From the sequence record PP925841.1: 45,272 nt of DNA. One strand, written 5' to 3'. Shown here in pieces: positions 28,334 through 28,937 of the stretch. A program made the translations under genes and the position numbers. Position 1 is the first letter of the stretch, and each line of letters begins with the position of its first letter. Origin of the DNA: Escherichia phage HannyBb. The notes beneath the pieces are model-generated. The model had not been told where the DNA came from. It saw only the letters and a list, made by a program, of their open reading frames with translations, and made no database searches.

Positions 28334-28525
28334 TTAAAGACCTGCCGGGATTTCGATATTATCCTGGTGAATAACTTTATCGACCGGGTAACAGTTACCG
28401 GGAATTTTCTGTTCGGTTGCTGCAGTCATACACTCCTGCATTGTCCTGTGAACACTGACTGCAATATCAACTGGCACTCCGGAAACAAGAAAAACTGTCA
28501 GAACAAGCGCAAATGCTGAATTCAT
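28334..28525 (-). CDS. ydfD: YdfD-like small secreted/lysis protein
   Basis: 63 aa, MNSAFALVLTVFLVSGVPVDIAVSVHRTMQECM..., signal-peptide-like N-terminus; ATGA overlap with the dicB stop. Confidence 0.65.
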   Translation of the reverse strand: MNSAFALVLTVFLVSGVPVDIAVSVHRTMQECMTAATEQKIPGNCYPVDKVIHQDNIEIPAGL

Positions 28526-28710
28526 TGTGCACATCCTTTTGGCATCAGACGTAAACGAGCCAGCATTGAAACAATGCATATTTTATTTAATAGCTCCTGT
28601 TCTTGTTTTCTCTTGTTAATGGCATCTTCAGTAAATACAGGGTTACTGATAGTGACACCAATTTCAAAACAACCTTCAGACGTATTAACGTTTGGTAATA
28701 ACGTTTTCAT
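28522..28710 (-). CDS. dicB: Cell division inhibitor DicB
   Basis: 62 aa, MKTLLPNVNTSEGCFEIGVTISNPVFTEDAINKRKQEQELLNKICIVSMLARLRLMPKGCAQ, matching recalled Qin DicB; GAGGA Shine-Dalgarno upstream; dicF lies 170 nt upstream. Confidence 0.8.
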   Translation of the reverse strand: MKTLLPNVNTSEGCFEIGVTISNPVFTEDAINKRKQEQELLNKICIVSMLARLRLMPKGCAQ

Positions 28711-28880
28711 TATCGCGTCCTCAACAATGAATTTTGTGATGCAGTGCCTGGTGCCTCCAGGTGACGTTAACCAGTTAACAATTAACGTCGGATACAGAGA
28801 ATCCACCCATAACACTGTTTTTGGTTTTAACTGTTCCGCGTGCGCTTAGCCGCATTCACCGCATCACAAAATTCACTTTA

Positions 28881-28937
28881 AAAACGGCGGCAGAGCAGTC
28901 ACGGAGTAAAACTGATACCGCCAAACGTCACCAGAAA
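28881..28937 (-). ncRNA. dicF: DicF small regulatory RNA
   Basis: Minus strand reads TTTCTGGTGACGTTTGGCGGTATCAGTTTTACTCCGTGACTGCTCTGCCGCCGTTTTT, matching recalled DicF including its terminator hairpin and U-tail. Confidence 0.8.

Follow-up and report, generated by a model that had tools for sequence, protein, structure and literature searches.

The dicF, dicB and ydfD genes of Escherichia phage HannyBb: a probable early-left operon in an apparently complete lambdoid phage

DicF, DicB and YdfD are textbook products of the Qin prophage of Escherichia coli K-12. The processing of the K-12 dicBF transcripts, the part played by Rem and the bistability of the operon have been described (PMC10448788). 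In that work, Northern blots revealed a 1146-nt species (ydfABC-dicF) and a 1608-nt species reaching through ydfD, nothing longer than ydfABC-dicF-dicB-ydfD was detected, and Rem was identified as an antirepressor of DicA (PMC10448788). The pairing of K-12 DicF was checked by compensatory mutation: its hairpin loop pairs with the ribosome-binding site of ftsZ, and its 5′ end with xylR, pykA and manX (PMC5069750). YdfD binds the MEP-pathway enzyme IspG, and DicB masks the effect of YdfD (PMC8835842).

Ragunathan et al. (2023) reported that mEp460_ev081 (LR597641), an infant-gut phage, is functional and carries dicB, dicF, dicAC and rem. Its rem, dicB and DicF precursor, the latter 98.2% identical to the one studied here, are present in the sequence, while DicF is unannotated in the record. 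Tritos (OV696610) is prophage 3 of the AIEC strain LF82 and forms plaques and virions (PMC9928086). It has the identical int-xis-exonuclease-ydfD-dicB-DicF order, and DicF, dicB and ydfD are annotated in its record. More distant parallels exist as well. Kil, encoded in the lambda pL operon, and KilR of Rac are likewise small early-left products that block FtsZ-ring assembly upon induction (PMC3961180). The block considered below would differ in being twofold, with an sRNA directed at ftsZ mRNA and DicB working via MinC, and in having a lysis protein in addition; the likeness drawn is one of function.

The DNA analysed here, referred to as the window, is the complete 45,272-nt record of Escherichia phage HannyBb (PP925841.1), an entire phage genome whose linear record is cut at the gene for the large terminase. 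In the FDAARGOS_144 prophage the end of the window joins its start contiguously, and the host flank ceases to match at about 24075, at the prophage/host boundary. The window is therefore an excised, re-oriented phage genome, and a prophage with host flanks is ruled out. The structural half (1-24000) aligns with plaque-forming Tritos in a single piece at 98.7% identity. Tritos covers just 71% of the right half; it has a different immunity/replication module (CI/Cro/Rha) and keeps ydfC and ydfB. In mEp460_ev081 the gene sizes of the immunity/replication module match those at the window-homologous site (repressor 408, Cro-type regulator 228, YdaT 522 and O 966 nt), and the region between repressor and DicF differs. 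The genome turned out to be a mosaic of these two phages. For the right arm the counterpart is an annotated prophage that has O, Q (ydfT), holin, lysozyme, Rz and terS, and the terminase, head, tail, integration, immunity, replication, Q and lysis modules are all uninterrupted. The phage looks complete and is predicted to be viable. Since the window is a whole phage genome, the first-pass annotation's view of an intact early-left operon, as opposed to the remnants found in K-12, holds at the level of sequence. We conclude that this is very probably the early-left (pL-equivalent, dicBp) operon of a complete temperate lambdoid E. coli phage of the Qin/mEp460/Tritos type.

From dicBp to int all genes lie on one strand with short gaps, and the order that had been proposed is confirmed: on the minus strand, DicF, DicB and YdfD precede a large exonuclease gene, which is followed by xis and int. 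The features of this arm are as follows:

28885..28937, minus strand: DicF sRNA (RF00039), carrying an intrinsic terminator of its own, the hairpin GGCGGUAUCAG...CUGCUCUGCCGCC followed by a U tract
28711..28884, minus strand: DicF-dicB spacer and dicB leader, near-identical to K-12 and Tritos
28522..28710, minus strand: dicB, cell-division inhibitor of 62 aa (PF05358, NF049927, phrog_1251)
28334..28525, minus strand: ydfD, predicted lysis protein of 63 aa, DUF1482 (PF07358, phrog_1092)
28283..28296, minus strand: weak terminator-like hairpin in the ydfD-exonuclease gap, from a consensus scan only
25769..28240, minus strand: exonuclease of 823 aa, intact form of K-12 ydfE (PF16473; phrog_2082 over its full length)
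25445..25696, minus strand: xis, excisionase (phrog_539, E 1.4e-35; PGAP 'excisionase family protein' at the homologous site)
24130..25410, minus strand: int, tyrosine integrase (tyrosine-recombinase NCBIfam matches; PGAP annotation)
near 24075: attP, at the prophage/host boundary in FDAARGOS_144

The matches to DicF, DicB and YdfD are far beyond chance. DicF is present in one copy in the window, which matches RF00039 at 28885..28936 (minus strand) with 72.5 bits against a gathering score of 48 bits (E 3.4e-14; model positions 1-52 of 52 in cmscan). Its sole difference from K-12 MG1655 is a C-to-G change of the last nucleotide, after the terminator stem, and this change is common to Tritos. 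In the cmscan alignment the 3′ intrinsic terminator consists of a stem without non-standard pairs, then GUUUUU. The full-length score and the near-identity to K-12 rule out a chance match or a bare terminator taken for DicF, and the covariance-model search thus bears out the identity that had been suggested. A 53-nt DicF of the K-12 form would begin at 28937, where the first-pass annotation had placed the end of the locus; such an RNA, arising from RNase E cleavage and termination, is predicted here, with the precursor and an RNase III-type stem both retained. A check of the DicF seed against ftsZ mRNA had also been proposed. By duplex energy, 26 of 500 shuffles pair as well with the ftsZ leader, which is not significant alone, so the claim rests on identity to the tested K-12 RNA, complete at all 52 positions but the last.

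DicB matches PF05358 over its full length (E 1.5e-40; 137.1 bits, cut-off 27) and NF049927 (132.8 bits, cut-off 100), and differs from the K-12 protein by one substitution, R38Q. YdfD matches PF07358 with 88.7 bits (E 2.2e-25; cut-off 25) and has two substitutions relative to K-12, so that both earlier assignments are sound. The ATG of ydfD overlaps the dicB stop codon (ATGA), and the last base of the ydfD stop codon, 28334, is the other boundary originally given for the locus. YdfD had been called a small secreted protein. Its N-terminus is indeed hydrophobic, but the partner it binds in published work is IspG (PMC8835842), and no evidence of secretion was found for it; IspG binding and lysis in the phage are predicted from the K-12 counterpart. 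The spacer between DicF and dicB also shows a sub-threshold match to Rfam STnc100 (28711..28884, minus strand; 33.5 bits, gathering score 47).

The 823-aa gene differs from the IS2-cut ydfE of K-12 in being whole, and the xis and int genes beside it are intact; the phage also has all the structural, lysis and replication genes, in which it differs from Qin. The contrast originally drawn with K-12 is borne out by the ydfE pseudogene, whose first 255 aa are 100% identical to the N-terminus of the 823-aa protein. The designation of this gene as RecE-like has to be withdrawn at the level of the catalytic domain. The C-terminus (residues 642-813) is an Rv2179c-like DEDDh 3′-5′ exonuclease domain (PF16473, 226.5 bits), and the likeness to exonuclease VIII is confined to the middle of the protein and to the part of that enzyme that is not catalytic. 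The ExoVIII profile NF007259 scores 282.7 bits, far below its cut-off of 1269, and aligns residues 246-623 only, to profile positions 271-600 of 877; a RecE-type C-terminal nuclease domain is absent, since the match ends at position 600. A sequence search of the PDB returned two chains, 8KEL and 8KEN (227 aa, 'Exodeoxyribonuclease'), which match the C-terminal domain only. There is no adjacent recT: the exonuclease-xis gap is just 72 nt, and none is annotated in the relatives.

Upstream of DicF lie two overlapping structured elements:

28942..29077, minus strand: structured leader, the body of the known 190-nt DicF precursor, with a closing stem and three hairpins
29063..29143, minus strand: RNase III-type stem-loop of about 22 bp at the 5′ edge of the 190-nt precursor, from folding

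The published 190-nt DicF species has its 5′ end at this stem-loop (PMC10448788), which folds with -35.2 kcal/mol (z -3.8; 0 of 200 shuffles as good) and whose 3′ arm runs into the 5′ strand of the stem that closes the leader. K-12 builds the same processing stem with G-U changes. The precursor and its stem have survived a replacement of the sequence immediately upstream of them.

The immunity region and its surroundings contain the following:

29671..29772, minus strand: ydfB remnant, C-terminus missing (PGAP pseudogene at the homologous site)
29774..29929, minus strand: ydfA (DUF1391), first gene of the operon (PF07151, E 2.4e-28; PGAP)
30006..30034, minus strand: candidate early-left promoter, dicBp/pL equivalent, TTGACG-17-TAAATT (promoter scan)
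30041-30057 and 30008-30024 (within 30008..30057): two operator-like sites, TTGAGTTTTCTCATCAA and TTTAGTTTTCTCATTGT respectively, flanking the -35 hexamer
30122..30529, minus strand: DicA-family repressor of 135 aa, HTH only, no S24 peptidase domain (NF007257)
30579..30594: perfect palindrome of 16 bp, ATTGAGTTTTCTCAAT, covering the start site and -10 hexamer of the promoter on the cro/dicC side (OR equivalent)
30607..30834, plus strand: DicC/Cro-type regulator (PF14549 P22_Cro, E 6e-17)
34682..34933, plus strand: rem homologue (PGAP 'protein Rem' at the homologous site; phrog_340)

Like K-12 Qin, the window has the 190-nt precursor with its RNase III-type stem, ydfA and its leader, the same promoter position, and a repressor, a Cro-type regulator and rem of the same families. 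The candidate promoter aligns with the K-12 dicA-ydfA region where dicBp must lie, and its -35 and -10 hexamers are putative assignments. The repressor scores 239 bits against NF007257 'repressor DicA' (cut-off 101). Being only 57% identical to K-12 DicA and having other operators, it likely confers a different immunity. The operator core ATGAGAAAACT occurs in two exact copies, both at the candidate dicBp, and in two one-mismatch copies at the dicA-dicC end of the immunity region; three putative operator sites TTGAGTTTTCTCA for the repressor were counted. With a promoter beside the repressor gene that points away from the immunity region, an operator motif shared by both promoters, and xis-int at the far end, the layout is that of a lambda-type pL operon as far as sequence can tell. 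The rem block is 98.4% identical between the window and a PGAP-annotated relative. No canonical LexA box was found near rem in a CTGT-N8-ACAG scan of the window; the single match, at 43458, lies a long way from rem, does not exceed chance expectation and was rejected as an SOS box for this gene.

Between ydfA and the leader the window departs from K-12, the BLAST homology being broken from about 29102 to 29674. The ydfC gene is absent and, together with the end of ydfB, has been replaced by a 106-aa membrane-protein gene in the opposite orientation, which could interfere with transcription of the operon. The truncated ydfB and missing ydfC are what one would expect if the genes were decaying remnants here too, kept by hitch-hiking only. 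This is highly improbable: the differences from K-12 amount to 1 nt in DicF, 1 aa in DicB and 2 aa in YdfD, the reading frames are all intact with exonuclease, xis and int at full length, and the G-U changes leave the pairing of the processing stem in place.

We infer that an early-left operon of this kind would operate in HannyBb much as in K-12; the processing steps, the RNA and protein targets and the part given to Rem are taken from the literature on that strain. In the lysogen, the DicA-family repressor would occupy operators of the TTGAG-N4-CTCAA type, at dicBp as well as at the promoter on the cro side. Since the repressor has no self-cleavage domain, derepression is expected through the phage's Rem antirepressor or a spontaneous DicA/DicC switch, as shown for K-12 Qin. 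Leftward transcription would then pass through ydfA and the ydfB remnant into the long structured leader. RNase III is predicted to cut at the base of the ~22-bp stem, giving the 190-nt species, and RNase E in the AU-rich spacer, giving the 53-nt DicF that ends at its own intrinsic terminator. Read-through past this terminator would yield the translationally coupled dicB-ydfD, and some polymerases may go on into the exonuclease gene, xis and int. With Hfq, DicF would block translation of ftsZ and likewise that of manX, xylR and pykA; DicB, with MinC, would block the Z ring and, by inactivating ManYZ, exclude phages that bring in their DNA via ManYZ. YdfD would inhibit IspG and lyse dividing cells, with DicB masking the lysis. 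The net effect would be a block of host division early in lytic growth, the role of Kil in lambda.

Within this scheme, co-expression of the division inhibitors with xis and int, as first suggested, is an extrapolation. In K-12 no transcript was detected beyond ydfD, and the same junction, within a stretch 99.2% identical to K-12, is found here with the weak hairpin (28296..28283) at the point where they appear to end (PMC10448788); exonuclease, xis and int may thus not be co-transcribed. There could instead be at least two transcription units, with dicBp driving ydfA-ydfD only, its unit ending at the DicF terminator or just after ydfD, and the exonuclease, xis and int genes using promoters of their own, as lambda int does with pI. 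Induction would then not co-express the division inhibitors and recombination functions from one operon. The absence of any longer species on the K-12 blots agrees with this arrangement. So does the fact that neither an N-like antiterminator nor a homologue of HK022 put was found that could carry polymerase past the DicF terminator: BLAST and the covariance model gave no match of the leader in HK022, a second copy is missing on the rightward side, and the first gene of the operon is ydfA (DUF1391). In K-12, however, the downstream gene is truncated by IS2, and a longer transcript may simply be unstable there. In addition, the promoter scan of the minus strand found no promoter-like site in 25300-28334, and the lambda-like order and short gaps (ydfD-exonuclease 93 nt, exonuclease-xis 72 nt, xis-int 34 nt) argue for read-through. 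On balance we regard separate units as possible but somewhat improbable.

A different assignment of function is that the module mainly serves the lysogen, as a host-benefit or exclusion cassette (moron), and not early lytic growth; low-level or stationary-phase expression would provide metabolic control by DicF and exclusion of ManYZ-using phages by DicB. K-12 DicF does build up in stationary phase without a need for Rem, and dicBp comes on spontaneously in about 1% of K-12 cells (PMC10448788). DicB protects against lambda-type infection, and 4852 of 5426 complete E. coli genomes retain sequence that matches the int-to-dicF arm at least in part. We nevertheless consider this unlikely. [quoted passage not shown] The two roles are also compatible with each other.

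The 136-nt leader upstream of DicF is absent from Rfam 15, and its conserved structure may be new. A covariance model built here (R1) scores 156.6 bits at 28942..29077, with no second strong match in the window. In an alignment of the leader (A5), compensatory changes are seen at 11 of 31 pairs, values that 0 of 500 shuffles attained; the loops GGCGGUAAGUAUGGC and GGUUGACCAUACGCC are invariant, and the leader includes the stem GUUGUCA/UGACAAC. A known Rfam family is ruled out, as cmscan gave no match at E<=1 for the leader in the window, P1 or cdtI. So is a tRNA, as ARAGORN found none in the window. Variants with 60-nt and 61-nt indels in the conserved core show that it is not coding, and the comparison with HK022 described above speaks against a put-type antiterminator.

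The leader is assigned to several unrelated groups of Enterobacterales phages, namely those of the Qin/mEp460 type, those of the cdtI/Stx2c type (in five genera) and P1/P7 with their ban operon, and in all of them it would belong to an early operon under repressor control. The structure recurring in cdtI-type phages and P1 is always followed by a variable, terminator-ended small RNA. In P1, the 'dicF-like region' in the ban-operon leader (NC_005856, 68791-68892) scores 89.7 bits with R1, and its stems have changed in a compensatory way. A promoter under repressor control lies immediately before this region, and an intrinsic terminator comes after it. The region differs in that the RNA after it is not DicF by Rfam, and in that tRNAs and ban, not dicB, lie downstream. 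Among the slot RNAs a single one, L039, stands out, as its loop has 11-nt perfect complementarity to the ftsZ leader; for the other slot RNAs the duplex energies with the ftsZ leader are statistically uninformative. We tentatively suggest, while thinking it rather doubtful, that the leader is no mere throw-away precursor but a distinct module with a variable sRNA slot. It would either steer the RNase III/E maturation of the sRNA in that slot, whichever it is, or set whether polymerase halts at the terminator or continues into dicB-ydfD and further. DicF would then be only the commonest occupant of its downstream slot.

The arrangement of dicF, dicB and ydfD in a complete phage is already known, being annotated in Tritos and published for the functional mEp460_ev081 (Ragunathan et al. 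2023). The int-to-dicF arm is almost whole in 2257 of 5426 complete E. coli genomes (~42%), so the rarity that the first-pass annotation implied for the intact state does not stand: an uninterrupted arm is a common state, and K-12 is the broken exception. As originally stated, the finding adds little, since the presence of these genes in many E. coli prophages has already been published or annotated. Two corrections are useful, namely that the 'RecE-like' gene has a different nuclease domain and no RecT partner, and that the operon may or may not run as far as int. The one lead deserving the attention of specialists is the structured leader and the variable sRNA slot behind it. Control of maturation or read-through by this leader, if real, would explain how an early-left operon without N passes the DicF terminator, and the leader would be a reusable cassette for sRNA delivery in temperate phages.

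The placement of a DicF-like sRNA, DicB and YdfD on the minus strand, upstream of an exonuclease gene, xis and int, is confirmed to the base:

28885..28936, minus strand: DicF sRNA (RF00039, 72.5 bits against a gathering score of 48, E 3.4e-14)
28522..28710, minus strand: DicB, 62 aa (PF05358, E 1.5e-40; NF049927, 132.8 bits, cut-off 100)
28334..28525, minus strand: YdfD, 63 aa (PF07358, E 2.2e-25)
25769..28240, minus strand: exonuclease gene, 823 aa
25445..25696, minus strand: xis
24130..25410, minus strand: int

The covariance-model search proposed for DicF returned a full-length match above the gathering score, covering 52 of 52 model positions with no non-standard pairs. 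Aligned with K-12 MG1655 and the related phage Tritos, DicF equals MG1655 dicF except for the nucleotide after the terminator stem, which is C in K-12 and G in the window and Tritos. The annotated 53-nt K-12 form of the RNA corresponds to a start at 28937, the end coordinate of the first-pass annotation. DicB differs from its K-12 counterpart by one residue and YdfD by two; the ydfD start codon (ATG) shares bases with the stop codon of dicB. For DicB, YdfD and the exonuclease, PHROGs contains full-length families. The DicF-dicB spacer (28678-28887, minus strand) shows a full-length, sub-threshold match (33.5 bits against 47) to Rfam STnc100, a Salmonella sRNA candidate; the STnc100 "sRNA" may be the equivalent dicB-type leader. 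A similar weak match lies downstream of the P1 tRNA genes.

Since DicF, DicB and YdfD hardly differ from their K-12 counterparts, the activities published for K-12 can be transferred. DicF with Hfq represses ftsZ, manX, xylR and pykA (PMC5069750), and DicB, acting with MinC, blocks both the Z ring and ManYZ (PMC10448788). YdfD binds IspG, an enzyme of the MEP pathway, and lyses cells that are dividing, an effect prevented when DicB or SulA halts division (PMC8835842). YdfD had also been called secreted; its N-terminus is hydrophobic, nothing points to secretion, and its published partner is IspG. Soon after derepression, the module would bring host division to a halt, comparable to Kil in lambda. 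[quoted passage not shown] When DicF was checked against the ftsZ leader, pairing over the Shine-Dalgarno sequence and start codon appeared, but the duplex energy is not statistically significant, 26 of 500 shuffles doing as well, so the ftsZ claim rests on sequence identity.

The implied rarity of an intact arm does not hold: it is common, and already annotated and described in phages, and the broken K-12 copy is the exception. The Tritos record has annotations for "DicF antisense sRNA", dicB and ydfD, placed between the exonuclease gene and CI. Ragunathan et al. (2023) reported that the functional phage mEp460_ev081 carries dicB, dicF, dicAC and rem, and Balasubramanian et al. (2016) described many prophages that contain dicBF, O157:H7 having several copies. 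The dicF-dicB-ydfD region is matched by at least 57 phage records, and the int-to-dicF arm is at least 80% present in one place in 2257 of 5426 complete E. coli genomes. The DicF-DicB-YdfD finding as given is already known; the interpretation in the first-pass annotation was largely right, with two details wrong.

The 823-aa protein had been described as RecE-like. Its C-terminal 170 residues form a DEDDh 3'-5' exonuclease domain (PF16473, Rv2179c-like, 226.5 bits), and the resemblance to exonuclease VIII is confined to residues 246-623, which align with its non-catalytic middle (282.7 bits, cut-off 1269). Solved structures related in sequence are limited to the 227-aa exodeoxyribonucleases 8KEL/8KEN, which match the C-terminal domain, and recT is absent beside the gene. 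For the catalytic domain, the RecE label is rejected. The protein that legacy annotations call "exonuclease VIII" is a chimera, with a RecE-like middle joined to a DEDDh 3'-5' exonuclease domain. Residues 1-255 are 100% identical to K-12 ydfE. The gene is the intact form of ydfE, and ydfE its IS2-truncated N-terminus.

The ydfD, exonuclease, xis and int genes share one strand, separated by 93, 72 and 34 nt. Reading them as one operon through to int is an overreach: K-12 Northern blots show no transcript beyond ydfABC-dicF-dicB-ydfD (PMC10448788), and the ydfD-exonuclease junction is the same here and carries a weak hairpin (28296..28283). Nothing resembling an N or put antitermination device turned up; by BLAST and covariance model, the DicF leader has no match in HK022.

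The window is no chromosomal slice but an entire phage genome, re-oriented to terL. Position 1 is the start codon of terL, the large terminase gene and first ORF; the last ORF (44725..45264) encodes the small terminase subunit, and the sequence ends 8 nt past the terS stop codon. In the FDAARGOS_144 prophage, 44535-45272 of the window (100% identity) runs directly into 1-5446 (99.1%), and int-side homology ends at 24075, where host DNA (ydeR) begins. This contiguity and the host border therefore indicate a complete excised genome opened at terL, and place attP near 24075. No interruption was seen in any of the modules. The structural half is 98.7% identical to Tritos in a single piece, and the gene sizes of the immunity and replication module match mEp460_ev081. 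Tritos, which is prophage 3 of strain LF82, undergoes spontaneous induction, plaques on MG1655 and was imaged as a siphovirus (PMC9928086).

Several other features were observed in the genome:

37170-39220: AT-rich stretch downstream of the Q antiterminator gene (37% GC against 48% genome-wide), without counterpart in the closest prophage
38256-38540, minus strand: 94-aa ORF in that stretch, its hydrophobic C-terminal tail ElaB/YqjD-like as judged by eye
34141-34315, plus strand: sok antisense RNA (115 bits); hokD is expected adjacent from homologous annotation, and HokD is by far the top-expressed prophage gene in Tritos lysogens
39563-39955 and 42454-42870, plus strand: two thermoregulator leaders of the cspA type with cold-shock genes (cspB-, cspI-like), flanking the lysis cassette
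39211-39423, strand opposite to these leaders: cspF-like ORF

Candidate control elements for the arm are:

30034..30006, minus strand: promoter-like site TTGACG-17-TAAATT, just left of the repressor gene
34682..34933: rem, antirepressor homologue

The promoter-like site aligns with the K-12 dicA-ydfA intergenic region, where dicBp must lie, and the ydfA leader is conserved with K-12 from about 10 nt further downstream. The repressor is of the DicA family, HTH-only with no peptidase domain (NF007257, 239 bits), and 57% identical to K-12 DicA. The 11-mer ATGAGAAAACT has only two mismatch-free copies in 45 kb, both flanking the -35 hexamer. With one mismatch, it recurs as a perfect 16-bp palindrome, ATTGAGTTTTCTCAAT (30579..30594), that covers the start site and -10 hexamer of the promoter on the cro/dicC side. 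These putative operators are arranged as OL and OR would be in a working immunity region. In K-12, Rem is an antirepressor that lifts DicA repression (PMC10448788); no canonical LexA box was found near rem.

The region upstream of DicF carries the following:

29774..29929: ydfA
29671..29772: ydfB, truncated
29215-29535, plus strand: 106-aa antisense ORF within the early-left operon; three hydrophobic segments
29143-29121 paired with 29085-29063: stem of about 22 bp (fold -35.2 kcal/mol, z -3.8)

Downstream of ydfA and ydfB, BLAST homology to K-12 is lost between about 29102 and 29674, and the opposite-strand ORF sits there, in the place that ydfC has in K-12 and Tritos. In some genomes PGAP annotates this ORF as hypothetical, in others it omits it; the ORF matches no Pfam, NCBIfam or PHROG family and has full-length homologues (40-58% identity) in Yersinia, Herminiimonas and Reinekea. 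The 5' arm of the stem is a conserved island within the otherwise broken homology, K-12 forms the same stem with G-U changes, and from the stem through dicB almost every base is shared with K-12 and Tritos. The stem lies at the published RNase III cut that forms the 5' end of the 190-nt DicF species, from which RNase E then produces the 53-nt form (PMC10448788).

Directly upstream of DicF lies a structured element, also located in other sequences:

28942-29077, minus strand: the element, 136 nt
2492-2627 in L008, 2477-2606 in L007, 4526-4661 in L147, 2367-2502 in L149: further copies

In a sensitive search with the DicF precursor, cdtI, Stx2c phages, Salmonella F1055 and P1/P7 matched the upstream part only; in the P1 record, a stretch that overlaps it is labelled "dicF-like region". 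The pattern of invariant blocks occurs in at least 120 stretches in IMG/VR and, in a one-genome-per-species collection, in prophages of Escherichia, Shigella, Citrobacter, Trabulsiella, Serratia, Erwinia and Izhakiella. The consensus fold has a closing stem (GUUGUGGC/GCYRCAAC), a hairpin (CCGCG-AAAUGG-CGCGG), a long arm whose tip varies and a further hairpin (GUUGUCA...UGACAAC). Among 20 distinct sequences, in an alignment fitted to the model, 96.4% of cells pair, against 31-60% with the partners slid; both-sided changes occur in 11 of 31 pairs, and none of 500 shuffles reaches any of five measures. The element is a conserved RNA structure, supported by covariation. A coding sequence is ruled out because 60- and 61-nt indel variants occur in the core. 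Rfam 15 has no match at E<=1, and a covariance-model search brought up no match in HK022 and, elsewhere in the window, no strong one.

Next after the element there is always a slot occupied by a short RNA, variable between copies, with an intrinsic terminator at its end. Among the matches listed, a biased sample, DicF is the commonest occupant (canonical in 80 of 115; ten other versions in 35), and Rfam calls DicF at only 3 of 15 representative loci. In cdtI-type phages of five genera the element lies between a CI-like repressor gene and the first early-left ORFs, and in P1 just past the C1-controlled ban promoter. In L039 (IMG/VR 3300036778_000215), a sequence of cdtI-type context with the element at 5635-5774 (minus strand), the slot sRNA is not DicF by Rfam; 11 nt of its loop, AGUUUCUCUCC, are perfectly complementary to the Shine-Dalgarno region (ribosome-binding site) of ftsZ.

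In the fold predicted without the upstream arm, the 5' flank of the leader pairs with a stretch lying about 30-50 nt past the DicF terminator, which possibly fits the published RNase III cuts on either side of DicF. The element could alternatively act as an attenuator or antiterminator; given the RNase III/E data, we prefer to read it as a processing scaffold. The leader-plus-slot architecture is the sole part of this locus that may repay follow-up.
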